Part shown: positions 23,655-43,700 of the stretch, piece after piece
Position numbering within the stretch: the first letter of the stretch is position 1
How the letters are laid out: every line of letters starts with the position of its first letter
Origin: Candidatus Poribacteria bacterium
GTDB lineage: Bacteria; Poribacteria; WGA-4E; WGA-3G
Direction of reading: 5' to 3'
Assembly (NCBI GenBank): GCA_963422705.1
Contig: OY730443.1
Span: forward strand, 2,270,694-2,334,693
Length of the DNA stretch: 64,000 nucleotides
Made by a program: the position numbers and the translations under genes
The notes under the pieces: generated by a model
What the model was told of the DNA's origin: nothing
Seen by the model: the letters and a program-made list of their open reading frames with translations, nothing else
Databases searched by the model: none

Positions 23655-23709
23655 CATCTTTTTGTATCGCACGCAATTTAAGTTCCCAGAGAAAATCCGG
23701 CTTAACACC

Positions 23710-25273: not shown

Positions 25274-25336
25274 GTCGAATCAGAAGCTATCCGTTAGGAG
25301 TTGTTCGTTTAAAAAGCAATCGCATCTAAATAGACT

Positions 25337-26095
25337 ATGAACCCAGCTCTAATTTTTCTCAACGGATATTATGACGCGAGGTACCTCAATTTTTATCGAC
25401 AAGAAATTGAGGAGGCTGAGGCGAAGCACCTACCGCTCATCTGTGCTGACGGCGGGTTGCGCATTTTTCACCAATTAAATCAGAGATATGGCATTCATCT
25501 TACGCCTGATATCCTCATCGGGGATTTGGATTCCGTGGATGCATTGGACACGGATATTGCGAAACATATCGTTCAGGAATGGATTGGACAGACAGATAAG
25601 GATTATACCGACGGCCAGCTAGCTGTCGTCTACGCCATAGAACAGTACGATTGCCAGCATATTATCATTTATGGCGGCTTACCGCGGCCGGGGCAGTATG
25701 AGACAGAACAGTTTCTTGGAAACTTAAAGTTGATGCGTTTTGGCGAGAATAGGATGAACCTTTGTAATAAATCACGAGCCGGTGCCGGAAAAGTATACAG
25801 AGCGGAGATGCGAGATGCGCGACAAACGATTCACTATGTGGTATCACAATTGCGGTTAATCCGAAAAAACAGCGGGTTGCAGCGCGTCTCCCTCATCGCA
25901 GAAGAGCCAGGCGTGGTGGTAGAAAACAGCGAAAACTTGCGCTGGAACCTCGCGTCAATGCACGTTGATGCGGTACAAATCAATACACTTCGTAACGAAT
26001 TCGTCACAGACAAAAAATGTGCCATGCTGCAACTAGCTGAAGGTTCTGCCCCGGTTTACGTGATTCACAACTGGTATGATTTAGCTGTCTGCTAA
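25337..26095 (+). CDS. Thiamine pyrophosphokinase-like protein
   Basis: ICADGGLRIF ... ILIGDLDSVD resembles the TPK catalytic GDxDS motif. The C-terminal extension is unusual. Confidence 0.45.
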   Translation: MNPALIFLNGYYDARYLNFYRQEIEEAEAKHLPLICADGGLRIFHQLNQRYGIHLTPDILIGDLDSVDALDTDIAKHIVQEWIGQTDKDYTDGQLAVVYAIEQYDCQHIIIYGGLPRPGQYETEQFLGNLKLMRFGENRMNLCNKSRAGAGKVYRAEMRDARQTIHYVVSQLRLIRKNSGLQRVSLIAEEPGVVVENSENLRWNLASMHVDAVQINTLRNEFVTDKKCAMLQLAEGSAPVYVIHNWYDLAVC

Positions 26096-27043
26096 TACCG
26101 AAGTGAGGGTTGCAGTATCCAAATTACCGCCGCTCATTACCATGACGACATTCTTCCCTGCAAGCCGCCCGTTCAGTTTATGGGCTGCCGCTATCGGCGC
26201 TGCCCCGGCACCTTCTGCCAGGTGATGCGTCCATCGTAAGGCGAGTCGGATACCGTCACGAATTTCGGCCTCGCTGAGTAAAACAATGTCGTTAATTCCA
26301 TCTTTGATGATGGAAAAGGGCAATCTAAATGGTACCCGCGTTGCAAGCCCATCCGCGACGGTATTGCAGGAATCGGTTTCTATAGGTTTCCCCGCCTTCC
26401 AAGAGAGATAGACAGCCGCAGCGTTTTCGGCTTGCACGCCGATAACAGAAACATTGGGATTAATTGCCTTCGCTACGGTAATTGCCCCACAACACCCACT
26501 TCCGCCACCGATAGGGACAATAATCGCATCGACATGCGGTTGTTCCTCAAAAATCTCAACGGAATAGGTACCAACGCCGTGAAAAAGTGCAGGTTCAAGA
26601 CACGGATGCACATAATATAGCCCGCGTTCTGCCTGAAGTGTCTCACATAATTCGCGCGCCTCGTCAAAATCAGCGCCGTGTTCAATGATTTCAGCCCCGT
26701 AAGCCCGCATCGCACTATTTTTTTCCGGATTGTTCCCATGTGGAACGACGACAGTTGTTTTGAGCCCAAACGCTTTTCCCGCATAAGCGATAGACTGCCC
26801 GTGATTGCCGCGGGTTGCCGTAACAACCCCTAACTTTCGTTGTTCCGCCGGCAAAAGCGACATGAAATTTAAGCCGCCTCGCACCTTAAAACAGCCTGTC
26901 GGTAGGTGATTTTCGTGCTTGATATAGGCTTCAAAACCGAGGCGCTTTGATAATTCAGGATAATGGATTAGCGGCGTCGGTTTTAAAAACTTGCCAACAA
27001 CTGCCCTTGCCGAAATAATGCCTTGAAATGTAACAGGTGTCAT
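26081..27043 (-). CDS. Threonine dehydratase / serine-threonine ammonia-lyase (PLP fold type II)
   Basis: PLP-Lys motif CFKVRGG, and a Gly-rich GGGSGCCG loop. The start is taken at the internal Met (MTPVTFQ) of ORF 26081-27211. Confidence 0.8.
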   Translation of the reverse strand: MTPVTFQGIISARAVVGKFLKPTPLIHYPELSKRLGFEAYIKHENHLPTGCFKVRGGLNFMSLLPAEQRKLGVVTATRGNHGQSIAYAGKAFGLKTTVVVPHGNNPEKNSAMRAYGAEIIEHGADFDEARELCETLQAERGLYYVHPCLEPALFHGVGTYSVEIFEEQPHVDAIIVPIGGGSGCCGAITVAKAINPNVSVIGVQAENAAAVYLSWKAGKPIETDSCNTVADGLATRVPFRLPFSIIKDGINDIVLLSEAEIRDGIRLALRWTHHLAEGAGAAPIAAAHKLNGRLAGKNVVMVMSGGNLDTATLTSVLADS

Positions 27044-27524
27044 ATAGACTCCAAATCGATTTTGTTCCGCCTGAAAAATGTGTGTGTGGAGCAGAATAGC
27101 AAATACCCCGCTACGATGGCTCTTCTCTTGGATGCTTGCACCCAACGCCTCGGCAAATTCACGAAAATGTCGAAACCGCGAACGGATTTTAGAAGAGAAC
27201 ACTTTCAACAAGCTAAACGGGCGGCTATCTCCTATCGCCAGGAGAGGGCTACGATTTTACCCGTTTGCCGGGACAGAGGGCATCCATTGCAGGGGCACAG
27301 ATAATTAATGATAGGCTTGACTGACTATAAATGCCCTATACGCCAAAAATAGGCGCTTGCAAATAAAAAAATATGTGCTAATATTATAACCGATTCCAGT
27401 CAGTATCTCAATTGATACAGAAAAGCCAGAGCTGTTGAGTTGCTCCAATAGACTGCTATTCGCAATGCCCATCTCAAATACATAGGTGAACATAAGGCGA
27501 GTATTTTGGGTTAGTAACATTTAG

Positions 27525-28481
27525 ATGAAAGGAACTCACATGACATATCAATGGCAATCCACCCACGTAGAGATTCCCGATACCGATGAGCTGATTGAAG
27601 CCTGTTATGATAACGGCTGGACAGATGGACTTCCCGTCGTACCGCCTACCCCCGCGCGCGTTGAGAAAATGCTCAGCGGTACAGCCCGGCGCCCTGCGGA
27701 ACTTATTGCCCCCATACCCCCAAAATGGGGTAGAGCAACTGTTGAAAAAGTAGCAATTAACGCCGTCATGGCAGGATGCCGCCCGGACTATTTACCAATT
27801 GTCCTCAAAGCAGTAGAGGCGATATCGGCAGACGAGTTCAATCTCCATGGGGTGCAGGTGACGACATCACATGTCGCCCCGATGCTTATTATTAATGGCC
27901 CTCTCCGGAAATCATTAGACATTAACCACGGTTTTAACCTCTTCGGGCAAGGATGGCGCGCGAATGCCACTATTGGACGTGCTGTTAGACTCGTCTGCAC
28001 GAATATCGGTGGCGCATTGCCCGGTGAACTCGACAGGGCCGCTTTTGGGCACCCCGGGAAATATACATGCTGTATTGCTGAAAATGAAGACGACAGTCCG
28101 TGGCTCCCTTTACATGTTGAACGCGGTTTTCAAGAAGAGGACAGCACCGTGACAGTCTTCGCAAGCGCCGGGCCACAAAGCATCAACGAACACGGTAGTA
28201 ATACCGCAGAAGGGATTCTCAACACGATTTGTCACAACTTAATCGCACCGGGCAACAGTGGCGGCCAAACCTTGCTCGTCGTCGGGATTGAACACGCCAA
28301 AACAATATCCGCCGATGGGTTTGGCAAAAACGACGCGCGACGTTATATTGCAGAACAGACACAACACTACAAGACTGAAGATTTATTGATGATGGTAGCA
28401 GGCGGGCCGGCAGGGCGATGGACTATCCTGGTACAAGGATGGGGCTCACCGACTTCGAAGGCTGTCACCTTGGCCCTATAG
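27525..28481 (+). CDS. Conserved hypothetical protein
   Basis: 318-aa ORF with good coding statistics and no confident family assignment. Confidence 0.35.
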   Translation: MKGTHMTYQWQSTHVEIPDTDELIEACYDNGWTDGLPVVPPTPARVEKMLSGTARRPAELIAPIPPKWGRATVEKVAINAVMAGCRPDYLPIVLKAVEAISADEFNLHGVQVTTSHVAPMLIINGPLRKSLDINHGFNLFGQGWRANATIGRAVRLVCTNIGGALPGELDRAAFGHPGKYTCCIAENEDDSPWLPLHVERGFQEEDSTVTVFASAGPQSINEHGSNTAEGILNTICHNLIAPGNSGGQTLLVVGIEHAKTISADGFGKNDARRYIAEQTQHYKTEDLLMMVAGGPAGRWTILVQGWGSPTSKAVTLAL

Positions 28482-28521
28482 AAACCGCTTTTAACTGGTG
28501 TTACCTAATCTCACATTTTTC

Positions 28522-28550
28522 TTGCAAATCGGCAGAAATTATAGTATACT
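28522..28550 (+). promoter_or_regulatory. Candidate sigma70 promoter (TTGCAA-N17-TATACT)
   Basis: TTGCAA at 28522-28527, a 17-nt spacer, TATACT at 28545-28550. It is ~65 bp upstream of the CBS-domain gene. Confidence 0.35.
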
Positions 28551-28616
28551 TAAGATAATGAGTACGCTCATAACCTATCCGCTTCATTAAACGTTAAATT
28601 TTAAGGAATTCACGCG

Positions 28617-29054
28617 ATGGACGCGCGAACGTTGTCACTACCGATTAGCACAATCAATTATAACCAACCTATCACTGTACAAGTTGGCGCCCCTGTTTCA
28701 GATGTCATCGCCACAATGCAGGAGGAAGGGTTTGGGTGTATTCTCGTCGTTGACGATTCCCAGCGATTGAACGGCATTGTGACAGAACGTGACTTGCTTG
28801 TTCATATTGTCGGCGGGCGGTTAGTCCCTGAAGAAACCGCCGTTGAAACCGTCATGACAGATGCCCCAGAGGCGCTCCGTGCCAGTGACTCGATTGCGTT
28901 TGCCTTAAACCTCATGCACCTTGGACATTTTAGGCACGTGCCCCTCTGCGTCTGGGATGAACAGGGTGATGCCTATCCCGTCGGATTAATTTCGACGCGT
29001 GATATTTTAAATCACGTCGCGATATTTATAGAGAATAAAGCACCGGGGAGGTAG
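28617..29054 (+). CDS. CBS-domain pair protein
   Basis: 145 aa with two CBS motifs (GCILVVDDSQRLNGIVTERDL; LISTRDILNH). Confidence 0.75.
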   Translation: MDARTLSLPISTINYNQPITVQVGAPVSDVIATMQEEGFGCILVVDDSQRLNGIVTERDLLVHIVGGRLVPEETAVETVMTDAPEALRASDSIAFALNLMHLGHFRHVPLCVWDEQGDAYPVGLISTRDILNHVAIFIENKAPGR

Positions 29055-29056
29055 CC

Positions 29057-29593
29057 ATGCTGTACGATGTAGCCATTGATGAAGAATTAGAACAGATGGA
29101 GCAGGATGTGGCACTCAAAGCCTCGAACACGCTTGAAATTCAAATCCCGCTTCGGGCACTGATGCGCCCGGTTGTTACAATTGCCCTCGGCTGTAGTATA
29201 CAAGATGCAATAGACATCTTTCTCGAGCATAAAGTTGGAGCTGCCCCGGTTGTCGATGCGCATCGGCGGCTCTGTGGTATTTTTAGTGAACGTGACGTGC
29301 TCCGTGAAATTCTCAACAAATCTGTTGGAAACCTTGAGAAAATTAGCGTTGAACAGTTCATGATAGCCAATCCTGAAACAGCGCATGCCGAGGATTTGTT
29401 GGATACCGCGATTCTCTACATGGCGCGTGGCGGTTACCGGCATCTGCCGATTGTCAATGAACTGCATCAGCCCGTCGGCATGGTATCGATTCGCGATGTC
29501 ATTTCCCATCTTGTTGATAGTTTTCCACAGGAAGTCTTAACGCTACCGCCCAGGCCCGTTCGAGATGCAATGAAAGCCCGCGAGGGGGCTTGA
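29057..29593 (+). CDS. CBS-domain pair protein
   Basis: 178 aa with a CBS pair (GAAPVVDAHRRLCGIFSERDVL; MVSIRDVISHL). Confidence 0.75.
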   Translation: MLYDVAIDEELEQMEQDVALKASNTLEIQIPLRALMRPVVTIALGCSIQDAIDIFLEHKVGAAPVVDAHRRLCGIFSERDVLREILNKSVGNLEKISVEQFMIANPETAHAEDLLDTAILYMARGGYRHLPIVNELHQPVGMVSIRDVISHLVDSFPQEVLTLPPRPVRDAMKAREGA

Positions 29594-29634
29594 AATGTAA
29601 TTTTACCCCCGTTCTACGGAAGGAACCGATTGTG

Positions 29635-31470
29635 ATGCGTAAGTCTGTATCGCAAATTGAGGAAGCGACTATCCTGTTTGCTGGAGACTCCGGCGACGGC
29701 TCCCAAACAATTGGCGCTCAAATGACAGAGACGACGGCCCTCATTGGCAATGATGTTGCTACCTTGCCAGATTACCCCGCTGAAATCCGGGCGCCCGCCG
29801 GCTCTTTGGCAGGCGTTTCCGGATTTCAACTCCACTTTTCAAGCGAGCAGATTCACACCCCCGGAGACAGGTGCGACGTGCTTGTCGCTATGAATCCCGC
29901 CGCCTTAAAAGTCCAGCTTGATAAACTCAAACCTAACGGCATTCTTATTGTGAATTCGGATAATTTCACTCGCCGAAATTTGAGACTGGCGGGCTACGAT
30001 AATAATCCGCTTGAAAATGATTCCCTCACAAAATATCAGCTTTTCCCCACCGACTTAACAGGGCTCACCCGAAAATCACTCGAAACAACACAACTCTCTG
30101 TCGCCGAAATCGACCGGTGCAAAAACTTTTTTACCCTCGGCATGATTCTGTGGCTCTATAACCGCTCCTTGGAATATACCATGAAGTGGATTAAAACAAA
30201 ATTTGCCACAAAGCCGCAGTATATTGAGGCAAATATTCTTGCGCTTCGCGCCGGAAACGTTTACGCCGAGGCCACCGAGCAGTTTGCCACTTCATACGAG
30301 GTAAAACCTGCCGCCTTTTCACAAGGAACTTATCGAAATATTGAGGGCAACATGGCAACCGTGCTGGGCTTAGTTGCCGCTTCACATCAAGCGCGCTTAC
30401 CGCTTGTTTACGGCAGTTATCCAATCACACCCGCAAGCGATATTCTGCACGGACTCGCGCAATACCGCAATTTTGGCGTCGTAACGATGCAGATGGAAGA
30501 TGAAATCGCCGCCGTCGGCGTCGCAATCGGCGCCGCATTTAGCGGGGCACTCGGCATCACAGGCAGTAGCGGGCCCGGGCTCGCTCTCAAATCCGAGGCT
30601 ATTAATCTCGCGATGATAGCTGAACTCCCCCTCGTTATATGCAATATACAAAGAGCCGGGCCCTCAACCGGAATGCCCACAAAAACTGAACAGTCCGACT
30701 TGTTGCAAATGCTTTATGGACGAAATGGCGAATCCCCGGTGCCTATCCTCGCACCCATGCGCCCTTATGACTGTTTCGATACCGTTTACGAAGCATGCCG
30801 AATCGCCGTTAAATACAGAACACCCGTCATCTTTCTTTCTGACCTCTATATCGCACTCGGCGCCGAGCCCTGGAAAATACCAAAAATCGCCGAATTGCCT
30901 CATATTGAACCGAACTTTGTTGAGCCCGAGACGGTTTTGAATGGGTTTGAACCGTACTTGAGGAACCCTCAAACCCTCGCACGCCCCTGGGCAAAACCCG
31001 GAACACCCGGACTAGAACACCGAATTGGGGGACTTGAAAAATCAGACGTTACCGGGAATGTCAGTTATGATGCCGAAAACCATGAAAAAATGGTCAATAT
31101 CAGAGCCAAAAAGGTTGCCGGGATTGCTACCGATATCCCTAGCACTGAGCTCTTTGGGCCGGCTGAAGGGGAACTCCTCGTCCTCGGATGGGGAAGCACA
31201 TACGGCGCCATCCGAACCGCTGTCGAAAATTGTCTTGAAGCAGGACAGGACGTCGCCCATGTACACCTACGATATCTCAACCCGTTGCCAACCGATTTAG
31301 GCGATATCCTGAGTAGGTTCAAGAAGGTTCTAATGCCCGAATTAAATAGCGGACAACTTCGCCAATTAATTCGGAGCACCTATTTAGTCGACGCTATCGG
31401 CTTTAATAAAATTCAAGGACAGCCTTTCCACGTTTCTGAACTGGAAACGAAAATTAACAATTTGATTTAG
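29635..31470 (+). CDS. korA: 2-oxoacid:ferredoxin oxidoreductase, alpha (gamma-alpha fused) subunit
   Basis: N-terminus ILFAGDSGDGSQTIG (gamma-like) and a central PFOR alpha domain (GSYPITPASDILH). The ORF is open from TTG 29590; the ATG at 29635 is used. Confidence 0.85.
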   Translation: MRKSVSQIEEATILFAGDSGDGSQTIGAQMTETTALIGNDVATLPDYPAEIRAPAGSLAGVSGFQLHFSSEQIHTPGDRCDVLVAMNPAALKVQLDKLKPNGILIVNSDNFTRRNLRLAGYDNNPLENDSLTKYQLFPTDLTGLTRKSLETTQLSVAEIDRCKNFFTLGMILWLYNRSLEYTMKWIKTKFATKPQYIEANILALRAGNVYAEATEQFATSYEVKPAAFSQGTYRNIEGNMATVLGLVAASHQARLPLVYGSYPITPASDILHGLAQYRNFGVVTMQMEDEIAAVGVAIGAAFSGALGITGSSGPGLALKSEAINLAMIAELPLVICNIQRAGPSTGMPTKTEQSDLLQMLYGRNGESPVPILAPMRPYDCFDTVYEACRIAVKYRTPVIFLSDLYIALGAEPWKIPKIAELPHIEPNFVEPETVLNGFEPYLRNPQTLARPWAKPGTPGLEHRIGGLEKSDVTGNVSYDAENHEKMVNIRAKKVAGIATDIPSTELFGPAEGELLVLGWGSTYGAIRTAVENCLEAGQDVAHVHLRYLNPLPTDLGDILSRFKKVLMPELNSGQLRQLIRSTYLVDAIGFNKIQGQPFHVSELETKINNLI

Positions 31471-31547
31471 CGCGACGGATATGAATTGAGAACCCAAACC
31501 GCCTTGACAATAACCATTTTTTTTCAGAAAAATAGACGGACAAAAAA

Positions 31548-32582
31548 ATGAAAAATAGACACACTGCACGCATACCGAAAAGCGCGCCCACCCAAAAAGA
31601 CTTTAAATCGGACCAGGATGTCCGATGGTGCCCAGGCTGTGGGGATTACTCTATCTTAGCGCAGACACAACGCATTATGCCCGAACTCGGAATTCCGAGA
31701 GAAAATATCGTCTTTATCTCCGGAATCGGGTGCTCAAGCCGATTCCCTTACTATATGAACACCTACGGCTTTCACACGATTCACGGAAGAGCACCAACGA
31801 TAGCCTCCGGCGTCAAAATCGCTAATCCGGAACTCTCCATTTGGGTGATTACCGGCGATGGCGACGCGCTTTCAATCGGTGGAAATCATTTTATCCATTT
31901 GATGCGCCGAAATTTCGATATGAACGTACTCCTCTTTAACAACCGTATCTACGGGTTGACAAAGGGACAGTATTCGCCGACATCAGAGCAGGGGAAAATG
32001 ACGAAGTCTACACCGCTCGGCTCATTAGAAGCGCCCTTTAACCCGATTAGCCTCGCTTTGGCTTCCGGGGCAGCATTTGTCGCGCGTTCACTCGACAGGG
32101 ACCCGAATCATCTCCGCACTATCATTAAAGAGGCACATCAACATAAAGGTACCTCCTTTATTGAAATCTACCAAGACTGCCATGTTTTTAACAAGAATGC
32201 TTTTGAACAATACACCGACAAAGCAACGAAGGCTGAAAACACGGTATTTCTTGAACATGGCGAACCGCTGATTTTTGGAAATGGGCGCAATAAAGGTATC
32301 CGCTTAAACGGATTCCAACCTGAAGTTGTTGAAATCACAAACGATGCAAACAGCGAGCTCATCGTCCATGATAGGTACGCCGAGAATACGACGTTGGCAA
32401 ACTTCCTCGCACGCATGAGTGATACCGCCGGCATGCCGCATCCAATCGGTATCTTCCGCAGCGTCGAACAGCCGTGTTACGAGGACTTGATGGCAGAGCA
32501 GATTCAGGTTGCAAAACAACGCATGGGCGAAGCTAACCTCGAGACGCTCTTAAATGCAGGGGAAACCTGGGCCGTGGAATAA
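31548..32582 (+). CDS. korB: 2-oxoacid:ferredoxin oxidoreductase, beta subunit (TPP-binding)
   Basis: WCPGCGD and GIGCSS TPP/Fe-S motifs, and GDGD. Confidence 0.9.
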   Translation: MKNRHTARIPKSAPTQKDFKSDQDVRWCPGCGDYSILAQTQRIMPELGIPRENIVFISGIGCSSRFPYYMNTYGFHTIHGRAPTIASGVKIANPELSIWVITGDGDALSIGGNHFIHLMRRNFDMNVLLFNNRIYGLTKGQYSPTSEQGKMTKSTPLGSLEAPFNPISLALASGAAFVARSLDRDPNHLRTIIKEAHQHKGTSFIEIYQDCHVFNKNAFEQYTDKATKAENTVFLEHGEPLIFGNGRNKGIRLNGFQPEVVEITNDANSELIVHDRYAENTTLANFLARMSDTAGMPHPIGIFRSVEQPCYEDLMAEQIQVAKQRMGEANLETLLNAGETWAVE

Positions 32583-32701
32583 CAGAATAGCTGGCGGTTA
32601 CCCTTGCTAACAATAAGGGTTACGCCAATTCTACGCCCACCGAAACGCCAGCATCCGGACAGGCACACGCGCCTGAAACGCCTGAAGGAACGCAGCGAAT
32701 C

Positions 32702-35700
32702 ATGTCACATCATAAACCTCCTTTTAAGTCCAACATACGCGATAACCACTCCCGCGGAACTGTCGGAAACTTCCTCGACAACGAAATTAAAAAAGGTTCT
32801 AAACTCTCAATCGTCTCCGCATACTTTACAATTTACGCCTTCAATGCACTCAAAGATAGACTGAACGGAATCTCGGAACTCCGATTTCTGTTAGGGCAAC
32901 CCGACTTTATCACCGGTATGTCCCCAGGTGAATCCCAAGAAAAAGCCTTCCATATTCTAGACAGCGGCTTGCACCTTAACCAGCAGCTCCAACAAAAATC
33001 AGTCGCCAACGCATGTGCACAATGGATAAAAGAGAAGGTAGAAATCAAGAGCGCACGGCAATCAAATCTACTCCATGGCAAGATGTATTATATTGAAACC
33101 AACGGTGCGCAAAAAGCGATTATGGGGAGCTCCAATTTTACCGTGCACGGACTCGGACTGAGCCCACGGGCAAATAATATTGAACTCAATTTTGTCGTCG
33201 ATAATGACACCGACAGACAAGAAATCAAAAAATGGTTTGATGATATCTGGAACGAAAAAAAATTGTCACAGATGTTAAGGAAGATGTACTCGCCGAACTC
33301 AACCGGCTCGGAAAAGATTACGCCCCTGAGTTCATCTATTTTAAGACACTCTATGAACTGTTCAGGGATGAAATCGAATCAAGAAGAGATGGCGAACAGC
33401 AACTAGAAGATATGCATCTGTATGATACCCAGATTTGGGACGCGTTATATGGCTTTCAGAAGGACGGCGCCAAAAGCGTCATCGCCCGCCTTTTAAGACA
33501 CAACGGATGCATTTTGGCCGATAGCGTCGGACTCGGCAAAACTTATACTGCACTCGCCGTTATCAAATTTTTTGAACTGAGAAATGAGCGCATCCTTGTT
33601 TTATGCCCAAAAAAACTCAACAACAACTGGGGTAAATATTTAGCGCATACCGCCCAAAAGGACAACCCTTTTCCTAACGATAGGTTCGGTTATACCCTCT
33701 TATCACATACAGACCTTTCCCGTAGCAGCGGCAAAGCCGGCGATATTAACCTGGAAAATTTCAACTGGCGCAATTTTGATATGGTGCTAATTGACGAATC
33801 GCACAACTTCCGAAACGATACGAAACCTATCCGGGATGACGCAGGCAATATCATCCGGCATAGCCGATATACACGCCTCTTGCATGAAATTATCAAGGCA
33901 GGCACAAAAACGAAAGTACTCATGCTTTCCGCAACGCCCGTTAACACATCACTCATTGACCTCCGCAATCAAATTTACCTCATCACAGAGCAGCGCGAGG
34001 ACGCCTTCAACGACAGTTTGGGCATCCAGAACATCGGAACACTGCTACGACAGGCGCAAACGGAATTTAAAGCATGGGAGGAAAAAGAACCTAAACAGGG
34101 AAAAAGAGATAAATCAGAACTATTAAAAACATTGGGCACCGATTTTTTTACATTGCTGGGGGGCATCTCTATTGCACGGGCGCGACGCCATATTGAGAAG
34201 TTTTATGCCGACGAAATACACCGAATCGGGCCATTTCCAAAACAACTCAAACCCGAGAATTGCCACCCTAAGACGGACTTGGAAGGGAAACTTTCTTATG
34301 AAGATTTAACGGTGCTAATCGAGGACTTCTCATTATCTATCTATCGCCCTTCTAGTTACGTCATCAGTGAAACCGCGAAAAAACGGTTGGAACAGGAAAA
34401 AAAGAGATACCGTTTTAATCAGGTGGACAGGGAACGATTTCTTATCGGTATGATGCGGACGAATTTTCTCAAGCGCTTGGAAAGCTCCGCACACTCCCTC
34501 ACAAAAACGCTTGAACGGACAATCGGAAAAATTGATGATATGGTGGAGAGGATAGAACGATTCGAAAAAAAACGCGACAGCCTCCATACACACGCTGATA
34601 TACTGCCCGATGATGACGATGATGATGATGATTTTTTCGTCAATCGCGCACGCAACCCCTATCACCTACGAGAACTGGATTGCACACGATGGAAAATAGA
34701 ACTTAGAAAGGATAAAGAGAGCTTAACCGCAGCATTGAGCAAAGTCAACGTCATCACACCCGAACGGGATGGAAAACTCAAGCAAATCAAGGCACAGATT
34801 AAAGAAAAAGCACAATACTCAACGGTTGATAAGGACGGAAAAGTTAACCGGAAATTGCTAGTTTTCACGACGTTCAAAGATACTGCACTCTATCTTTATC
34901 AAAATCTCGAACCGCTTGCATCGAAACTCGGTATCAACACCGGATTCGTTGCCGGGACGGAAACGCGTACCACTTACGGCAAAAATAATTTTGACGCTAT
35001 CCTCGCCAATTTCGCCCCCCTGGCGCAGAAACGGGGAAAGAACATAAAAGACGAGGCAGAGGACACAAAAGAAGAAATCGATTTACTCATCGCTACCGAC
35101 TGCATCTCCGAAGGACAAAATCTACAGGACTGCGACACTGTATTGAACTATGACATCCACTGGAACCCAGTGCGTATCATACAACGGTTTGGGCGCATCG
35201 ACAGAATCGGAAGCCGAAATACCGCCGTACGGATGATTAACTACTGGCCCACCGAAGATATGGAAGTCTACCTCCGGTTGCAAAGCCGCGTCGAATCACG
35301 AATGGCGCTCGCTGATACAGTCGCCAGTGGCGACGACGACGTGCTCAATGAAATTACTTACGAACAAGCACAAATGGAACTCAACTTCCGGGAACAGCAA
35401 TTGCAGCAATTGCGCCAAGAGGTTCTCGACTTGGATGACATCTCCGATGGCGTCGTCATGAGCGATTTTACCCTCGATTATTTCTTCGTGCAATTGTTGA
35501 AGTATCTCGAAAAAAATAGGGAACAACTAGAAACTACACCGAAAGGGGCATACGCCATCACCGAAAACAGGGATAACCCTTTGGAAACCGACGTCATCTT
35601 TTTTCTCCGACAAATCAATGCAACGACGGATAAATACGCCAAAGTCGCAAGCCCAATTCATCCCTATTCCGCTGTTTACATTCGTGGTAACGGCGACATT

Positions 35701-36015
35701 CAATACGGATGCGCAAACGCAAAACAGGCACTGGAGCTCTTTGAAGCCCACGCTGTGGGTAATGACAAACCGCTGCGAAAACTGTGTCGCCAATTTGAGA
35801 AAGAGACGCAAAATGGCAAAGATATGGAACGTTACAACAAGCTGTTGAAAACGGTTATCGCGCACATCACCAAGACACATACAACCACACAGATAAAAAA
35901 TATGGGAATTCATGGCACCCGCAGCTTTAAACTGACACCCGCGTCTCAAAAACCGAAAGATGATAACGATTTTGAACTGGTAACGTGGCTCATTATTACA
36001 AAACCACTCTCATAA
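32702..36015 (+). CDS. PLD-like (HKD) nuclease domain fused to SNF2-family helicase, interrupted by a frameshift in an A8 tract
   Basis: Segment 1 (32702-33406) carries a single HKD-type motif LHGKMYYIETNGAQKAIMGSSNFT. The reading frame continues without stops in the +2 frame from the A8 run (33255-33262) into segment 2 (33412-36015). Segment 2 has SNF2 motifs I (ADSVGLGKT), II (LIDESHNF), III (LSATPVNT) and VI (QRFGRIDRIGS). Together they would give a ~1100-aa fusion protein. Confidence 0.8.
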
Positions 36016-36051
36016 AACCAATGCCAAAAACAGCGCAAAAATAGGAACATC

Positions 36052-36393
36052 ATGGCACATAAAAATCAATTATTTGAAAGTCGAACCGAATTTATCGCCA
36101 CACGCGGCGTTAAGGAATACCGCGAGACAATACCCACCTGGGTAACTGCAGACGATGTCGTCTTGGAAATCGGATGCGAATGGGGGACAACCACAACTGG
36201 ATACTATCGCACTCCTCACATCGTATTCAACCGTCATGCGCCCCGAGGCAATCATCGTGAAAAGCGGCGCTTTAAAACGGTTTGTCTCACACTGCACCGC
36301 TTGGCGTTCCGCCCAAAAGCAATAACAGGTGACATCAGCAATTTCTTCACCTTCCCAAATCTAAATCGGATACCCACAGCTACACCCCAATGA
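36052..36393 (+). pseudogene. Small SAM-MTase-fold gene, copy with ~200-bp internal deletion
   Basis: The first 49 codons are identical to the intact 156-aa copy at 40193-40663. After ...GTTTT the sequence jumps to the 3' portion of the gene in another frame. Confidence 0.7.
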
Positions 36394-39300
36394 ACAAAGA
36401 ACACATCAGAAACGCACTCGCCGACATCCCCACAGGCACTCTTGTCCAAACCGCAAAAGCCCTCCTCGCGACGTTGGGATACCGCAGCGAGCGGAACCTG
36501 GAACTCTCCGGAACCGTGGACGACTTTATCGAGAATTTCCCCACACGGGGACAAGAGGACAAAAAAGAACCTACCAAAACCGAACAGACATTTTGTAACA
36601 CCGTTGAATCCATCTATGTCGTCTTTCAAATCACAGAAAATGAAGTCAATCCTCAAGCCCAACAGACAGTTGATTTTGCTGAAAAAAGTCTCGCCGAAAG
36701 TTTCTGCTTTTTCGCCGCCGATTTGAAAGAGAAGCCCACATCCCGCAGCCGCTACGCCGAATTGACACGCGAAATCAATAAGCGGCTCTCTATCCCGGCG
36801 GTGGCGCTCTTTCGCACCGGGAACCGGTTGACAATTGGGGTTGCAGGACGCCGGCAACACCGCCGGAAATCGGGGCGCGATGTCATAGAACGGGTGACGC
36901 TCATCAAGGACATTCGCCTCGAAAATCCGCACCGGGCACACCTTGATATCTTGGCAGAACTCGCCCTCGGAGAATGCATGCAATGGATGGATGCCCACAA
37001 AAAACAGAGAAGCTTTGACGAACTCCTCGACACCTGGCTCGCTAAACTCGACACTGAAGAACTCAATAAGCAGTTCTACCGGAGGTTATTCGCATGGTTT
37101 GAATGGGCAATCTCCGAGGCGACGTTCCCAAAAAACGAAAAGAAAATCTTAAAGCCCGAAGAACACGTGATACGACTCATCACACGCATCCTGTTTATCT
37201 GGTTCTTGAAGGAGCAGGGACTGGTTGCCGATGCACTTTTCAATCAAACACAAATCCCTTCCCTTCTAAAAGATGACGATTTCGATAACGGAAGCTCCTA
37301 CTATCGGGCCGTGCTACAAAATCTGTTTTTTGCTACACTGAACACCGAGATAAAGCAACGCGGTTTTAGCAGCAATACACCTACCGGGCATCGCGACTTC
37401 TCGCGTTACCGCTACGCAGCGGAAATACGCGCCCCTGAGAAACTGGTGGAACTCTTCGCGCAAACCCCCTTTGTCAATGGGGGACTGTTTGAGTGTCTCG
37501 ATAGCGAGGAAGCAGCGATGCACGGCGGATACCGCATCGACTGTTTCTCTGATAAACACGGCAAAAAATTGTGCTTCCCCAACCGCCTCTTTTTTGATAA
37601 ACACTGTGGACTCTTCCCCCTCCTCAATCACTACAAATTCACCATAGAAGAGAATATCCCGGTAGAACAAGAAGTCGCCTTGGAACCAGAATTGCTCGGG
37701 AAGGTGTTTGAAAACCTGCTGGCGGCTTACAATCCGGAGACGGGTACGACGGCGCGTAAAGGGACAGGCTCCTACTACACGCCGCGCGTCGTCGTCGACT
37801 ATATGATAGACGAGATAGTGGTTGCAACCCTGGTAGAAAAGTGTCAGCCGTCCGATGGGGACGCGACACTCTGGGAAGAACGCCTGCGCTACCTATTGGA
37901 TTATGGGCAGACGTTTGACGATGCAAATGAATGGTTTGATGCCCCGGAAACCGACGCGATTGTGCGCACAATTTCGGAGCTGAAAATTCTGGAACCGGCC
38001 GTCGGTTCCGGGGCTTTTCCGCGCGCGATGCTCCGAAAACTCACGCTTGCCCTCCGCCGACTCGATTCGGCAAATCAACGATGGCAGCAGCTGCAAAGAA
38101 GACGCGCCGCACAGAGAGCGGAAGATGCCTTTGAAACCGACGATGACGAAGCGCGACGCGAAGAACTCATTGAAATTGATGAGACGTTCAGACGTTACCG
38201 GGATTCCGACTTCGGCAGGAAGTTATACCTCATTCAGAATAACCTTTTCGGGGTGGACATCCAACCCATAGCCTGCCAAATTACCAAGCTCCGCTTCTTT
38301 ATCTCCCTCGCTATTGAGCAGAAACCGGCGCGGCATCTCGATAATTTCGGGTTCAAACCACTCCCAAACCTCGAGACGCGGTTTCTTGCCGCGAATACCC
38401 TTGTCCGGCTGCAAGGGCAACCCGAATTCGTAACAGTCCATATCCAAGCGTTAGAGCGGCAACTCCGCGAGAATCGCGAACGGCACTTCCACGCCACCAC
38501 CCGTCAGCAAAAGCTTGACTGTATTAGCAACGACAAAGCCATCCGCACAGAATTAGCCGCGGCATTAGAGGAACTCGGTTTCTTTGCACGGGACGCCCAA
38601 AACATCGCGCACTGGAACCCTTACCAGCAGAACGAGAATGCCGACTGGTTCGAACCGGAATGGATGTTCGGGATTAACGACGGGTTTGATATCGTGATGG
38701 GGAACCCGCCATATATTTCAGTTACGAAGATTCCTGCCCCGTTGAGGGATTACCTATTCGAAAACTATCAAACCTGTATAAAGAGAACAGATATCTATAT
38801 CGCGTTCCTCGAAAGAGCCCTTTCCATTCTACAGCCGAACGGGATGATGTGTTTTATTCTCTCGTCGGCGTTTGCGAAACAGAAATATGGCGAAAAGATG
38901 CGCAGACGCCTCATAGAAAATCACGCCATCCGCGACATTGTGGATGCGAGCCGTTATCGGATTTTTGAGAATGCGGCAGTACATAACATCGTTTTGCTGG
39001 TAGGCAATCAAAAAACAGATGTCGAAACGCGAATCCGATTGCATACCAGCAACGCGGATTTTGAGACACCGGGTGAGTGCGCATTTTCTATCAAGCAAGA
39101 CGATTTTGCGGAACTGAAAGATGCCCGCCTTGAAACCGCTCCGAATATTCGTGAAAGTCTCAGGGTGAAAAAGAGGATATGGGAGCGCGCGGTGCGTTTC
39201 GATAAGATTTGCCTTGTCGCTTACGGCGCCAGGCTCAATTCCCCTTTAGCGGGAAAAAGAAAACAGGATTACATCAGCGAAGCCCGTCTTGCAGGGCGCA

Positions 39301-39890
39301 AACGGTTTTGTGAAGGAAGAGACATTCGGCGTTATACGTTTTCTCAAACCGGATGGTTACGCTACTCGCCGAATGAACACTACAACCCGATGTTTCCAGA
39401 ACTTTTTGAAACCGAAAAGTTGATGTTTGCCCGTATTGTGAATGAGCGGTTGCGATTTGCTTATGACGCCGAACGGTTCTACAATTGCAATACGGTTATA
39501 AACTGTGTTCGCTTAGATTTACTTTCCGGTGCCTCCCATATCACCGCCCGCCGCGCAACGCAATCTGCTGATAACAAATTCGCGAAGCGGTATGATTACA
39601 AATTTCTGTTGGGCGCTTTAAATTCTGGTGTCACAAATTGGTATTTCCGCAGTTTCTTAAGCACAGGTTTAGATTGTTACCCGGATGATGTAAAAGAGTT
39701 GCCTATCCCAAAAATGTCGCGTCAGCAGCAACAACCGATTATTGGGTTGACATCTCAAATTCTCGCGGCGAAAGCGAGGGATTCGGAGGCGGACGTCTCC
39801 GCTCTTGAAGCGGAGATTGACAGGCTGCTCTGCGCTTTCTACAAGCTTACCGCGGAGGAGATGCGTATCCTGGAGCATGGGCGGGGATGA
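36390..39890 (+). CDS. Eco57I/PglX/DrmMI-like gamma-class N6-adenine DNA methyltransferase with C-terminal TaqI_C-type target-recognition region (paralog 1 of 3)
   Basis: 1166 aa. Motif X GSYYTP, motif I ILEPAVGSGAFP, motif IV GNPPYI. The C-terminal tail LPIPKMSRQQQQPIIG...EIDRLLCAFYKLTAEEMRILE matches the conserved end of Type IIG/PglX enzymes. No PD-(D/E)xK motif was recognised in the long N-terminal domain. Confidence 0.85.
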   Translation: MNKEHIRNALADIPTGTLVQTAKALLATLGYRSERNLELSGTVDDFIENFPTRGQEDKKEPTKTEQTFCNTVESIYVVFQITENEVNPQAQQTVDFAEKSLAESFCFFAADLKEKPTSRSRYAELTREINKRLSIPAVALFRTGNRLTIGVAGRRQHRRKSGRDVIERVTLIKDIRLENPHRAHLDILAELALGECMQWMDAHKKQRSFDELLDTWLAKLDTEELNKQFYRRLFAWFEWAISEATFPKNEKKILKPEEHVIRLITRILFIWFLKEQGLVADALFNQTQIPSLLKDDDFDNGSSYYRAVLQNLFFATLNTEIKQRGFSSNTPTGHRDFSRYRYAAEIRAPEKLVELFAQTPFVNGGLFECLDSEEAAMHGGYRIDCFSDKHGKKLCFPNRLFFDKHCGLFPLLNHYKFTIEENIPVEQEVALEPELLGKVFENLLAAYNPETGTTARKGTGSYYTPRVVVDYMIDEIVVATLVEKCQPSDGDATLWEERLRYLLDYGQTFDDANEWFDAPETDAIVRTISELKILEPAVGSGAFPRAMLRKLTLALRRLDSANQRWQQLQRRRAAQRAEDAFETDDDEARREELIEIDETFRRYRDSDFGRKLYLIQNNLFGVDIQPIACQITKLRFFISLAIEQKPARHLDNFGFKPLPNLETRFLAANTLVRLQGQPEFVTVHIQALERQLRENRERHFHATTRQQKLDCISNDKAIRTELAAALEELGFFARDAQNIAHWNPYQQNENADWFEPEWMFGINDGFDIVMGNPPYISVTKIPAPLRDYLFENYQTCIKRTDIYIAFLERALSILQPNGMMCFILSSAFAKQKYGEKMRRRLIENHAIRDIVDASRYRIFENAAVHNIVLLVGNQKTDVETRIRLHTSNADFETPGECAFSIKQDDFAELKDARLETAPNIRESLRVKKRIWERAVRFDKICLVAYGARLNSPLAGKRKQDYISEARLAGRKRFCEGRDIRRYTFSQTGWLRYSPNEHYNPMFPELFETEKLMFARIVNERLRFAYDAERFYNCNTVINCVRLDLLSGASHITARRATQSADNKFAKRYDYKFLLGALNSGVTNWYFRSFLSTGLDCYPDDVKELPIPKMSRQQQQPIIGLTSQILAAKARDSEADVSALEAEIDRLLCAFYKLTAEEMRILEHGRG

Positions 39891-39930
39891 ATTCTCTGAA
39901 TTTCTGGTTATCGGGTTTCTAATCACATTA

Positions 39931-40192
39931 AAAATAAGGAACAACTAGAAGCTACACCGAAAGGGGCATACGCCATCACCGAAAACAGGGATAACCCTTT
40001 GGAAACCGACGTCATCTTTTTTCTCCGACACAGATAAAAAATATGGGAATTCATGGCACGCGCAGCTTTAAACTGACACCCGCGTTTCAAAAACCGAAAG
40101 ATGATAACGATTTTGAACTGGTAACGTGGCTCATTATTACAAAACCACCCTCATAAAACCAATGCCAAAAACAGCGCAAAAATAGGAACATC
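39931..40192 (+). other. Rearranged partial duplicate of the SNF2 helicase 3' coding end (junction relic of repeat unit 2)
   Basis: Matches 35516-35612 and 35878-36050 with the intervening ~270 bp deleted. Confidence 0.8.
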
Positions 40193-40663
40193 ATGGCACA
40201 TAAAAATCAATTATTTGAAGGTCGAACCGAATTTATCGCCACGCGCGGCGTTAAGGAATACCGCGAGACAATACCCACCTGGGTAACTGCAGACGATGTC
40301 GTCTTGGAAATCGGATGCGAATGGGGGACAACCACAACACTAATCGCCCCGCACTGCCAGAAAGTCATCGCGACTGATATCAGCACCAAATGTATTCACC
40401 GTGCACGAGAAATGTACCCTCAACTTCAATTTGAACTGCTTGACGGTTTTGATATCAGGGCAGCGCTTGAACTTGGTGAACCGTTTAGCAAAATCTACAT
40501 CGATATTTCGGGGCTGTCAGGCTACAACTCACTGCTGGATACTATCGCACTCCTCACATCGTATGCAACCGTCATGCGCCCCGAGGCAATCATCGTGAAA
40601 AGCGGCGCTTTAAAACGGTTTGTCTCACACTGCACCGCTTGGCGTTCCGCCCAAAAGCAATAA
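40193..40663 (+). CDS. Small class-I SAM-dependent methyltransferase-fold protein (156 aa)
   Basis: Motif I-like VLEIGCEWGTTT, acidic beta-2 end VIATDIS, then LQFELLDGFD and IYIDIS. A minimal Rossmann MTase core; function unknown. Confidence 0.4.
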   Translation: MAHKNQLFEGRTEFIATRGVKEYRETIPTWVTADDVVLEIGCEWGTTTTLIAPHCQKVIATDISTKCIHRAREMYPQLQFELLDGFDIRAALELGEPFSKIYIDISGLSGYNSLLDTIALLTSYATVMRPEAIIVKSGALKRFVSHCTAWRSAQKQ

Positions 40664-40727: not shown

Positions 40728-43700
40728 ATGAACAAAGAACACATCAGAAACGCACTCGCCGACATCCCAACAGGCAATCTTGTCCAAACCGCAAAAGCCC
40801 TCCTCGCGACGATGGGATACCGCAGCGAGCGGAACCTGGAACTCTCCGGAACCGTGGACGACTTTATCGAGAATTTCCCCACACGGGGACAAGAGGACAA
40901 AAAAGAACCTACCAAAACCGAACAGACATTTCGTAACACCGTTGAATCCATCTATGTCGTCTTTCAAATCACAGAAAATGAAATCAATCCTCAAGCCCAA
41001 CAGACAGTTGATTTTGCTGAAAAAAGTCTCGCCGAAAGTTTCTGCTTTTTCGCCGCCGATTTGAAAGAGAAGCCTACCTCCCGCAGCCGCTACGCCGAAT
41101 TGACACGGGAAATCAATAAGCGACTCTCTATCCCGGCGGTGGTGCTCTTTCGCACCGGGAACCGGTTGACAATTGGGGTTGCAGGACGCCGGCAACACCG
41201 CCGGAAATCGGGGCGCGATGTCATAGAACGGGTGACGCTCATCAAGGACATTCGCCTCGAAAATCCGCACCGGGCACACCTTGATATCTTGGCAGAACTC
41301 GCCCTCGGAGAATGCATGCAATGGATGGATGCCCACAAAAAACAGAGAAGCTTTGACGAACTCCTCGACACCTGGCTCGCTAAACTCGACACTGAAGAAC
41401 TCAATAAGCAGTTCTACCGGAGGTTATTCGCATGGTTTGAATGGGCAATCTCCGAGGCGACGTTCCCAAAAAACGAAAAGAAAATCTTAAAGCCCGAAGA
41501 ACACGTGATACGACTCATCACACGCATCCTGTTTATCTGGTTCTTGAAGGAGCAGGGACTGGTTGCCGATGCACTTTTCAATCAAACACAAATCCCTTCC
41601 CTTCTAAAAGATGACGATTTCGATAACGGAAGCTCCTACTATCGGGCCGTGCTACAAAATCTGTTTTTTGCTACACTGAACACCGAGATAAAGCAACGCG
41701 GTTTTAGCAGCAATACACCTACCGGGCATCGCGACTTCTCGCGTTACCGCTACGCAGCGGAAATACGCGCCCCTGAGAAACTGGTGGAACTCTTCGCGCA
41801 AACCCCCTTTGTCAATGGGGGACTGTTTGAGTGTCTCGATAGCGAGGAAGCAGCGATGCACGGCGGATACCGCATCGACTGTTTCTCTGATAAACACGGC
41901 AAAAAATTGTGCTTCCCCAACCGCCTCTTTTTTGATAAACACTGTGGACTCTTCCCCCTCCTCAATCACTACAAATTCACCATAGAAGAGAATATCCCGG
42001 TAGAACAAGAAGTCGCCTTGGAACCAGAATTGCTCGGGAAGGTGTTTGAAAACCTGCTGGCGGCTTACAATCCGGAGACGGGTACGACGGCGCGTAAAGG
42101 GACAGGCTCCTACTACACGCCGCGCGTCGTCGTCGACTATATGATAGACGAGATAGTGGTTGCAACCCTGGTAGAAAAGTGTCAGCCGTCCGATGGGGAC
42201 GCGACACTCTGGGAAGAACGCCTGCGCTACCTATTGGATTATGGGCAGACGTTTGACGATGCAAATGAATGGTTTGATGCCCCGGAAACCGACGCGATTG
42301 TGCGCACAATTTCGGAGCTGAAAATTCTGGAACCGGCCGTCGGTTCCGGGGCTTTTCCGCTCGCGATGCTCCGAAAACTCACGCTTGCCCTCCGCCGACT
42401 CGATTCGGCAAATCAACGATGGCAGCAGCTGCAAAGAAGACGCGCCGCACAGAGAGCGGAAGATGCCTTTGAAACCGACGATGACGAAGCGCGACGCGAA
42501 GAACTCATTGAAATTGATGAGACGTTCAGACGTTACCGGGATTCCGACTTCGGCAGGAAGTTATACCTCATTCAGAATAACCTTTTCGGGGTGGACATCC
42601 AACCCATAGCCTGCCAAATTACCAAGCTCCGCTTCTTTATCTCCCTCGCTATTGAGCAGAAACCGGCGCGGCATCTCGATAATTTCGGGTTCAAACCACT
42701 CCCAAACCTCGAGACGCGGTTTCTTGCCGCGAATACCCTTGTCCGGCTGCAAGGGCAACCCGAATTCGTAACAGTCCATATCCAAGCGTTAGAGCGGCAA
42801 CTCCGCGAGAATCGCGAACGGCACTTCCACGCCACCACCCGTCAGCAAAAGCTTGACTGTATTAGCAACGACAAAGCCATCCGCACAGAATTAGCCGCGG
42901 CATTAGAGGAACTCGGTTTCTTTGCACGGGACGCCCAAAACATCGCGCACTGGAACCCTTACCAGCAGAACGAGAATGCCGACTGGTTCGAACCGGAATG
43001 GATGTTCGGGATTAACGACGGGTTTGATATCGTGATGGGGAACCCGCCATATATTTCAGTTACGAAGATTCCTGCCCCGTTGAGGGATTACCTATTCGAA
43101 AACTATCAAACCTGTATAAAGAGAACAGATATCTATATCGCGTTCCTCGAAAGAGCCCTCTCCATTCTACAGCCGAACGGGATGATGTGTTTTATTCTCT
43201 CGTCGGCGTTTGCGAAACAGAAATATGGCGAAAAGATGCGCAGACGCCTCATAGAAAATCACGCCATCCGCGACATTGTGGATGCAAGCCGTTATCGGAT
43301 TTTTGAGAATGCGGCAGTACATAACATCGTTTTGCTGGTAGGCAATCAAAAAACAGATGTCGAAACGCGAATCCGATTGCATACCAGCAACGCGGATTTT
43401 GAGACACCGGGTGAGTGCGCATTTTCTATCAAGCAAGACGATTTTGCGGAACTGAAAGATGCCCGCCTTGAAACCGCTCCGAATATTCGTGAAAGTCTCA
43501 GGGTGAAAAAGAGGATATGGGAGCGCGCGGTGCGTTTCGATAAGATTTGCCTTGTCGCTTACGGCGCCAGGCTCAATTCCCCTTCAGCGGGAAAAAGAAA
43601 ACAGGATTACATCAGCGATGTCCGTCTTCCACGAGGTAAACGGTTTTGTGAAGGAAGAGACATTCGGCGTTATACGTTTTCTCAAACCGGATGGTTACGC

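Follow-up and report, generated by a model that had tools for sequence, protein, structure and literature searches.

A putative one-base deletion in an A8 tract separates the nuclease and translocase parts of an HKD-SNF2 restriction gene in a Poribacteria genome

Proteins that join an N-terminal HKD (PLD) nuclease to a SNF2-type helicase, encoded with a paired N6-adenine methylase, are found in the Type-2 BREX-related (BR) systems, for which a restriction-modification (R-M)-like restriction effector has been proposed; their defining feature is a DUF499 ATPase, joined in 98% of cases by a DUF3780 gene (PMC12839542). A large Eco57I-type methylase beside a PLD-SNF gene is likewise found in Cj0031-like Type IIG loci, and the PLD-SNF loci beside Cj0031-like methylases vary by programmed inversion (PMC9881135). 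Homopolymer switching has been documented for Cj0031, a related Type IIG enzyme (PMC4889913). Class 1 DISARM brings together the same three activities, as a SNF2 helicase (DrmD), an Eco57I-type methylase (DrmMI) and a PLD nuclease (DrmC). The repaired protein of the locus described here has a full-length match with the same N-terminal HKD nuclease and SNF2 architecture in the PADLOC candidate family PDLC01075 'HKD+Snf2' (C3a139), a catalogue model for which no experimental characterisation was found. Within the window, the whole 64-kb stretch of DNA that was analysed, the two parts of such a protein lie in different reading frames upstream of three methylase copies (Table 1).

Table 1. Coordinates (window positions) of the features of the HKD-SNF2 gene and of the methylase array downstream
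Feature	Position	Strand	Evidence or remarks
Whole ancestral gene, HKD(PLD) nuclease plus SNF2 translocase, 1104 codons if A9	32702..36015	+	repaired ORF without stop; 98-100% coverage against 119 homologues; PADLOC PDLC01075
Native N-terminal part, residues 1-187, PLD/HKD nuclease domain	32702..33262	+	Pfam PLDc_2 1.7e-11, RE_NgoFVII 1.3e-09
A8 homopolymer, site of the frame break	33255..33262	+	A9 (GAA AAA AAA ATT = E-K-K-I) restores the frame
Frame-B linker, I188-D237 of the ancestral protein	33262..33411	+	intact; 21 of 50 positions invariant across 20 sequences
47-codon out-of-frame end of ORF A, stop codon TAG 33404-33406	33263..33406	+	without homology to the homologue sequences
867-aa SNF2 ORF, starts at M238	33412..36015	+	Pfam SNF2-rel_dom/ResIII/Helicase_C
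Second A8 in the same gene	34565..34572	+	in frame: CCA AAA AAA CTC = conserved CPKKL; internal control tract
113-aa ORF, a shorter version of the SAM-methyltransferase-like 156-aa ORF 40193-40663	36052..36393	+	no Pfam match
Methylase copy 1, 1166 aa, Eco57I / N6_Mtase / TaqI_C, putative partner subunit of the module	36390..39890	+	
Duplicated remnant of the SNF2-gene 3' end, head of repeat unit 2	39930..40338	+	98% identity to gene end
156-aa ORF	40193..40663	+	weak Methyltransf_25/12; 85% identical to the L001 ORF between PLD-SNF2 and methylase
Methylase copy 2, 1166 aa	40728..44228	+	most differences from copies 1 and 3 lie in the C-terminal specificity region
Methylase copy 3, 1166 aa	44410..47910	+	

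Direct reading of positions 33250-33265 gives GAACG-AAAAAAAA-TTG, with a homopolymer of eight adenines at 33255-33262. Frame A, beginning at ATG 32702, reads KKWFDDIWNEKK followed by 47 unrelated residues (LSQMLRK...MANSN) and the TAG codon; ORF A as called thus covers 32702-33406, and the ATG at 33412 is located 5 nt after its stop. Frame B contains TGA TGA at 33238-33243, is open from 33244 onwards and reads YLERKKIVTDVKEDVLAELNRLGKDYAPEFIYFKTLYELFRDEIESRRDGEQQLED-MHLYD... into the 867-aa ORF. The first-pass annotation had described a frame open from the A8 run into the helicase ORF, and the slightly longer open stretch seen here agrees with the translation which it quoted. Addition of one A to the tract (A9) results in a 1104-aa ORF without a stop, while by our own reading of the coordinates the removal of one A leaves the frame broken. 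In the public annotation the two parts appear as separate proteins of 234 and 867 aa.

Homology to the relatives follows frame A up to K187 and frame B from I188, and the indel was therefore placed inside the A-run. Runs of at least 8 nt account for just 16 of the approximately 3300 nt of the gene. The window contains 102 homopolymers of 6 nt or more, among which only 33255-33262 joins two long open frames upon a +/-1 edit; the other 101 are associated with no gene break, and these include three coding 8-nt runs, all of them in frame. The location of the break at the A-run is no coincidence. Besides the tract at 34565-34572, the window has an in-frame A8 tract at 48344-48351.

The repaired 1104-aa protein was compared with its best 119 database homologues (68-72% identity, 1083-1140 aa). 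All 119 are full-length fusions which cover 98-100% of it, and all are collinear with it without an indel at the junction. The related loci, 81 in number and spread over more than 15 phyla, all have PLD and SNF2 in one tblastn frame, or as far as the contig end. The locus L001 is a syntenic orthologue (upstream CBS, CBS, POR and TPP genes) that can be aligned codon by codon through the site with no indel; its nine upstream genes match those of the window gene for gene, seven of them being equal in length. Residues 30-1097 of the repaired protein matched positions 22-945 of the 948 in the PADLOC model (E=1.8e-109), and for a PLD-SNF2 protein no solved structure closer than generic SNF2 ATPases was found. 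Since all homologues and related loci are single-frame, the split is secondary and unique to this genome. The proposal that the PLD and SNF2 parts form one gene is thereby strongly supported on comparative grounds, with 32702-36015 divided by a one-base slip in the A-tract; the comparison with orthologous loci that had been suggested together with this proposal revealed no orthologues in which the two are separate genes. The names of the homologues suggest that the organism is a sponge symbiont.

That the PLD nuclease and the SNF2 helicase are each encoded by a gene of their own, the latter starting at 33412, is extremely improbable and at odds with the comparative data. The spacing of 5 nt fits translational coupling and the public annotation lists two proteins, but this arrangement occurs in no relative, ORF A ends in frame-shifted residues without homology, and 50 conserved codons are left stranded without a start. 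Neither ATG, GTG nor TTG occurs in frame within the frame-B linker (33262-33411), which is therefore untranslated as sequenced, and only one of 78 relatives has M in the column of M238.

The catalytic and helicase motifs have been retained on both sides of the break. In the nuclease part H125-x-K127 and G142-S-S-N145 are intact, and the helicase motifs GLGKT, DESH, SATP and QRFGRIDRIG are intact in the 33412-36015 ORF. The catalytic residues lie in invariant alignment columns: H125, K127, S143, N145, G279-K280-T281, D365-E366-S367-H368 and Q828...G837 are all invariant, with the window sequence included. Together with these motifs, the 21 invariant residues out of 50 in the linker are preserved in the now untranslated frame. 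Because the rest of the 3.3-kb gene is undamaged, the A8 allele would be recent.

The most probable explanation, put forward with some reserve, is that A8 represents a genuine and recent restriction-off allele, which arose when a chance homopolymer of the HKD-SNF2 gene lost one base (A9 to A8). In a conserved R-M module of two genes that depends on ATP, this gene would supply the motor-nuclease subunit, and its partner would be the 1166-aa N6-adenine methylase downstream, which carries a TaqI_C-type specificity domain. The constituents of a PDLC01075-type two-gene module were all identified, namely an HKD to SNF2 polypeptide (as repaired, A9), a downstream Eco57I/N6_Mtase/TaqI_C methylase and the catalytic residues. 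In the window the methylase lies immediately downstream on the same strand, and of the 85 loci examined the great majority have the order PLD-SNF2 followed by methylase. No nuclease domain was detectable in the first approximately 350 residues of the methylase by Pfam, PADLOC or PDB sequence search.

The three methylase copies are intact and are arranged as direct tandem repeats, and no inverted repeats of the shufflon type were found in the array. At the head of the second repeat unit the remnant of the SNF2 gene is composed of two matches, both of 98% identity (35512-35612 to 39930-40030, and 35887-36197 to 40028-40338). The genes flanking the island are housekeeping genes: POR, CBS, DUF6807, ABC transporter and Omp85.

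At the equivalent site the A-run does not exceed A5 in any of the 80 relatives examined. When synonymous codons were shuffled, A9 appeared at the site in 45% of the trials, and the number of runs of A8 or longer in the gene was typical of such shuffles. Runs of at least 8 nt showed no family-wide enrichment in the R-M genes, and if anything were depleted (25 of 90 runs in 39% of the sequence). Judging from these figures the tract looks like a chance by-product and not an evolved switch. Its origin may lie in a chance combination of the peptide E-K-K-I with the preference of the genome for AAA and GAA codons, in a poorly conserved linker right after the nuclease domain. The first-pass annotation had offered phase variation, sequencing error and a fixed mutation side by side; on account of the absence of the tract in relatives, its expected occurrence by chance and the lack of enrichment the weight has moved to a genuine loss of function and away from an evolved switch.

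The same three observations count against lineage-specific phase variation, in which A8 (OFF) and A9 (ON) would interconvert at a useful rate to give mixed restricting and non-restricting cells with three methylases always on; this reading is considered decidedly unlikely. Compared with the poly-G/C tracts of classic contingency loci, A8/A9 runs of adenine mutate far less readily, and no A9 allele was found in any indexed assembly. Neither the full repaired protein nor a 376-aa query spanning the junction retrieved an intact A9 or near-identical allele: apart from the window's own 867-aa product, nothing exceeded 72% identity. An exact look-up of that product returned no contig, and JGI metagenomes, scanned with a pattern that accepted A6-A12, gave 0 matches. 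In favour of switching, the break falls exactly in a slippage-prone run and the intact remainder of the gene fits a reversible OFF state. In addition, the partner methylase is broken exactly at a homopolymer in two related loci (C8 in L001 and G12 in L012), which hints that slippage-driven switching may occur in such loci, and precedents are provided by the homopolymer switching of Cj0031 (PMC4889913) and the inversion of PLD-SNF/Cj0031-like loci (PMC9881135).

Programmed recoding was judged very improbable. In this case A8 would be functional and the fusion would be made at a set ratio, through -1 ribosomal frameshifting on A_AAA_AAA or insertion of an A by RNA polymerase, with free PLD protein produced as well. 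By our reading of the sequence, A_AAA_AAA at 33256-33262 is a formal -1 slippery heptamer in the zero frame, from which a -1 shift leads straight into the helicase frame with a product identical to that of A9, and in some organisms runs of eight adenines can give approximately a tenth of the product as full-length protein, or support the expression of IS elements (PMC1088944). However, the site is found in 0 of 80 relatives, the fusion being encoded directly in every one of them, and the 47-residue tail shows no homology. No stimulatory fold for -1 frameshifting was detected in the 88 nt downstream (z = -0.94; 32 of 200 shuffles fold as well), nor was any SD-like motif seen in the sequence upstream of the tract.

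An error of sequencing or assembly, by which one A of a true A9 in an intact 1104-aa gene was lost in the long-read consensus, is regarded as unlikely. The errors left in such a consensus concern chiefly the length of homopolymers, the gene is otherwise flawless, and the frame breaks at C8 in L001 and G12 in L012 apparently stem from the same kind of assembly. The strain is known from one sample and run only. Against an error, the k-mer assembler Logan, applied to run ERR11641160, produced a contig that likewise has A8 and shows 100% identity across 12,862 bp, although both assemblies probably share the same reads and hence are not independent data. Moreover, the remaining 101 homopolymers of the window break nothing, and in-frame A8/A9 runs were read correctly in many related loci. 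A flawless remainder of the gene is equally to be expected from a sequencing error and from a maintained ON/OFF switch. A scan of all loci for homopolymers at which a +/-1 edit merges ORFs returned mostly false matches and gives no error rate outside R-M genes; the false matches included a GrpE-DnaK adjacency (L053), spurious frames in GC-rich DNA (L018, L024 and L034) and, in L001 and L007, FRG and TPR genes that lie side by side.

Broken copies of the PLD-SNF2 gene, each with the methylase gene kept downstream, were identified in three related sponge-symbiont assemblies. The copy in L084 carries an IS insertion, that in L085 contains in-frame stops together with a stretch of scrambled sequence, and that in L086 has two frameshifts, neither at a long homopolymer. 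Judging by these sequences, the gene commonly decays in related sponge-symbiont assemblies, and the breaks are independent. The sister assemblies with real non-homopolymer lesions of the gene have 30-122x coverage, which also speaks against an error in the window.

For the genuine restriction-off allele, the A8 form being most likely real in the sequenced population, the product as written would be a protein of 234 aa (187 native and 47 out-of-frame residues). Only two ways of making the helicase would be left, namely reinitiation at ATG 33412, without the nuclease and 50 conserved linker residues, or rare slippage of polymerase or ribosome on the A-run; the position of this ATG could permit some helicase expression, and this counts against the preferred explanation. 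The net effect would be that restriction is off or very weak, while methylation would presumably continue from the three intact tandem paralogues. The tract could revert by slippage, with no sign of selection as a switch.

Frameshift at a homopolymer is a common bacterial route to losing or switching off restriction, and the finding is therefore real but fairly ordinary. Its value is chiefly that of an annotation correction, the 234-aa and 867-aa proteins being halves of one HKD-SNF2 restriction subunit that should be annotated as a frameshifted gene, and it would add one more case in which a restriction component is lost or silenced with methylation kept. The R-M family concerned is a two-gene one, widespread and experimentally uncharacterised. 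It is doubtful that A8/A9 acts as a lineage-specific master switch in an uncultured sponge symbiont, which would toggle or leak (by polymerase slippage) a single motor-nuclease serving three methylase paralogues of differing specificity, with C8 in L001 and G12 in L012 following the same strategy. If it does, restriction would be stochastically on or off and a three-motif methylome would be maintained. True A8/A9 heterogeneity would be an instance of phase-variable restriction outside the usual pathogens; an evolved switch is not favoured by the comparative evidence.

Among the described systems, membership in Type-2 BR and in Class 1 DISARM was rejected because the defining partner genes are absent. 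Pfam scans of ORFs lying between 26 and 64 kb revealed no DUF499 AAA+ ATPase and no stand-alone DUF3780; the window module consists of two genes and lacks both. No DrmA (YprA-type helicase) or DrmB (DUF1998) occurs in the island, and the PLD nuclease, separate in DISARM, is fused to the helicase in the window gene. DrmD was matched weakly (E=6.6e-34, partial), as was DrmMI (1e-13), and the DrmD NCBIfam score of 139 bits falls far under the cut-off of 610. In the Cj0031-like loci variation takes place through methylase inversion or a methylase poly-G tract, whereas in the window the run of A lies in the nuclease-helicase gene, inverted repeats are missing and the methylase copies stand in direct tandem. 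The window copy of PDLC01075 is frame-broken, and it is the A9 sequence that belongs to this family. Type III and Type ISP restriction enzymes pair an SF2 motor plus nuclease with a Mod/TRD methylase. Their nuclease is of the PD-(D/E)xK or Mrr type, in contrast to the N-terminal HKD domain and SNF2-like motor of the window protein. By analogy the underlying logic may be shared, with a methylase-TRD recognising the site and an ATP-driven motor-nuclease cutting the DNA, such that loss of the motor-nuclease would leave modification only.

The run at 33255-33262 was read as eight A residues in the context GAACG-A8-TTG. ORF A, the PLD nuclease part (...KKWFDDIWNEKK as far as the run's last A), continues past it for 47 residues without resemblance to anything, and frame B is open from 33244 (YLERKK-IVTDVKEDVLAELNRLGKDYAPEFIYFKTLYELFRDEIESRRDGEQQLED-M...), running into ORF B, the helicase part. 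Insertion of one A (A9: GAA AAA AAA ATT, E-K-K-I) gave an unbroken ORF of 1104 codons. The window sequence, the ORF translations and this edit bear out the run position and two-frame layout described in the first-pass annotation.

Features of the nuclease-helicase and methylase loci (window coordinates, or those of the locus named)
Feature	Location	Size	Remarks
ORF A, PLD/HKD nuclease domain	ATG 32702 to TAG 33404-33406	234 aa	PLDc_2 (1.7e-11), RE_NgoFVII (1.3e-09)
ORF B	33412-36015	867 aa	SNF2-rel_dom, ResIII, Helicase_C
Methylase copies 1-3	36390-39890, 40728-44228, 44410-47910	1166 aa	direct tandem; Eco57I/N6_Mtase/TaqI_C
SNF2 3'-end remnant in duplicated unit	39930-40338		matches 35512-35612 and 35887-36197
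Small ORF between helicase and methylase genes	36052-36393 and 40193-40663		
ORF directly after methylase array	48064-48954	296 aa	in-frame A8 at 48344-48351
L084	7879-9198		nuclease-helicase gene split by transposase gene
L085	about 7480-7560		scrambled stretch, several stops, 122x coverage
L086	about 6900-7360		two frameshifts, neither at a long run

The 1104-codon repaired protein had thousands of relatives in the database search, and the following figures are from the best 120. The sole short entry was the 867-aa product of the window itself; the remaining 119 were 68-72% identical, 1083-1140 aa long and covered 98-100% of the query, all carrying both PLDc_2 and SNF2/Helicase_C. A scan of species-representative genomes gave 80 related loci spread over more than 15 phyla, among them Poribacteria, Binatia, Latescibacterota, Chloroflexota, Cyanobacteria, Verrucomicrobiota, Planctomycetota and Bacteroidota. 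In these and in the syntenic orthologue locus L001, which has the upstream gene order CBS-CBS-POR-TPP in common with the window, both parts lay in a single tblastn frame, or did so to the contig limit (81/81). L001 aligned codon for codon across the run with no indel (WNDQKSVRDVK against WNEKKIVTDVK in the window), and the full-length 'HKD+Snf2' model of the defence-profile collection PADLOC matched the repaired protein (1.8e-109). No possible start codon was found in the 50 codons cut off between the end of the run and ATG 33412, 21 of which were invariant in a 20-sequence alignment. Based on these homologues, loci, alignments and stranded codons, the nuclease and helicase parts are one gene, as first proposed, and the split is secondary, located within the A-run and, among database sequences, unique to the window genome. 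Two real separate genes are extremely improbable.

As sequenced, A8 would yield a PLD domain followed by an out-of-frame tail and, at best, also a helicase without the nuclease part and without 50 conserved residues, via reinitiation at ATG 33412. This codon (33412-33414) sits 5 nt after the upstream-frame stop; the residue is the usual Thr in 40 of 78 relatives and Met in only one. It could be a coincidence or permit coupled reinitiation. Since the products would be a truncated PLD protein and at best a nuclease-less helicase, restriction is probably off. With three intact tandem methylase paralogues downstream, methylation is probably retained. Decay of the restriction subunit while the methylase persists is a common pattern, which the window locus fits. 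We favour, with modest confidence, a genuine, recent one-base deletion in an A-tract of chance origin, giving a restriction-off allele that is in principle revertible.

The residual error typical of long-read consensus is in homopolymer length, and the A8 break is of this type. A consensus sequencing error is a minor possibility of some weight, which gains from the otherwise flawless gene and from partner methylases broken at homopolymers in two related loci (C8 in L001, G12 in L012). However, a second assembly, the Logan contig of run ERR11641160 (another assembler, probably the same reads), also has A8 and is 100% identical to window 22702-35563. Among the window's homopolymers (102 that reach 6 nt or more, of which 20 reach 7 and 6 reach 8), only at this run does a +/-1 edit merge two long frames. 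The three further 8-nt runs in coding sequence keep the reading frame, one of them in the same gene (34565-34572, conserved CPKKL), and nine upstream genes pair one-to-one with L001, seven agreeing in length. Genuine decay of the nuclease-helicase gene is, moreover, common in sister assemblies (L084, L085 and L086), and the subunit seems to decay repeatedly. In each of the three a methylase gene was called downstream, within which the fetched stretch stops. All are sponge-metagenome contigs, and their disruptions are independent.

The comparative evidence argues against the tract being an evolved device, and we consider true phase variation at the run unlikely. No A-run longer than 5 was found at the homologous codons of 80 relatives, the site being a variable linker (typically N-D-D-K-L). 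The gene uses AAA for 77% of Lys and GAA for 78% of Glu, and 45% of synonymous-codon shuffles placed A9 at the junction; its two observed runs of at least A8 are a typical number for such shuffles. Runs of at least 8 nt were not enriched in nuclease-helicase and methylase genes across 1.25 Mb of related loci (25 of 90 runs within 39% of the sequence). In L001 (14807-14814), the closest syntenic orthologue, the nuclease-helicase gene is intact and the partner methylase shifts frame exactly at C8; with one C removed, the frame stays open for 1224 codons. In L012 (Spongiisociaceae; 12407-12418) the partner methylase shifts frame at a G12 some 115 codons from its start, where G11 would restore it. 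This tract has the length and base typical of a contingency locus and makes a more convincing case than the window's A8.

The heptamer A_AAA_AAA (33256-33262) is in the right register for programmed -1 frameshifting, but the downstream RNA folded no better than shuffles (z = -0.94), no SD-like motif was apparent upstream on reading the sequence, and relatives do not share the two-frame layout; programmed recoding is very improbable. Going by published work (PMC1088944), low-level frame correction by RNA-polymerase or ribosome slippage on eight A's would be plausible in the window.

The three methylase copies are all intact and 95-97% identical (aa). Most of their differences lie in the C-terminal specificity region; the divergence of copy 2 is concentrated in its last ~250 residues, and that of copy 3 is spread over scattered blocks. 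The array has no inverted repeats. The SNF2 remnant in the duplicated unit carries an internal 274-bp deletion, and its presence shows that the array was amplified by tandem duplication of the SNF2 3' end, small ORF and methylase. The 156-aa small ORF (85% identical to its L001 equivalent) matched Methyltransf_25/12 and PADLOC mad2 weakly, and a ~186-bp indel leaves its first copy only 113 aa long. Pfam, PADLOC and NCBIfam gave no match to the 296-aa ORF, and L001 lacks a counterpart, having an FRG-domain gene and a TPR gene at the corresponding position. L003, from another sample (ERZ25070844), carries a related array of at least three methylase copies; this whole 14,452-bp contig, named 1x (its coverage) and circular, consists of the tandem methylase repeat, and is probably an artefact of assembling that repeat, not a genuine circular element.

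In most related loci a large methylase homologous to the 1166-aa protein (Eco57I, N6_Mtase, TaqI_C) directly follows the nuclease-helicase gene, and by this comparison the two form a conserved module. No nuclease domain was detectable in the methylase N-terminus, so we infer that the HKD-SNF2 protein would carry out translocation and cleavage and the methylase-TRD protein recognition and protection, the split between motor-nuclease and methylase-TRD that Type III and ISP enzymes show. No close solved structure was found for these proteins. The window lacks the defining DUF499 and DUF3780 genes of Type-2 BR, and DrmA and DrmB of DISARM, and therefore belongs to neither. The closest described relatives are found in 'Type-2 BREX-related' systems, as their HKD-Swi2/Snf2 effectors (PMC12839542), and beside Cj0031-like methylases, as PLD-SNF genes (PMC9881135). 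The system belongs to a known, experimentally uncharacterised R-M family, in which the split gene adds a further case of a phenomenon that is itself well known.
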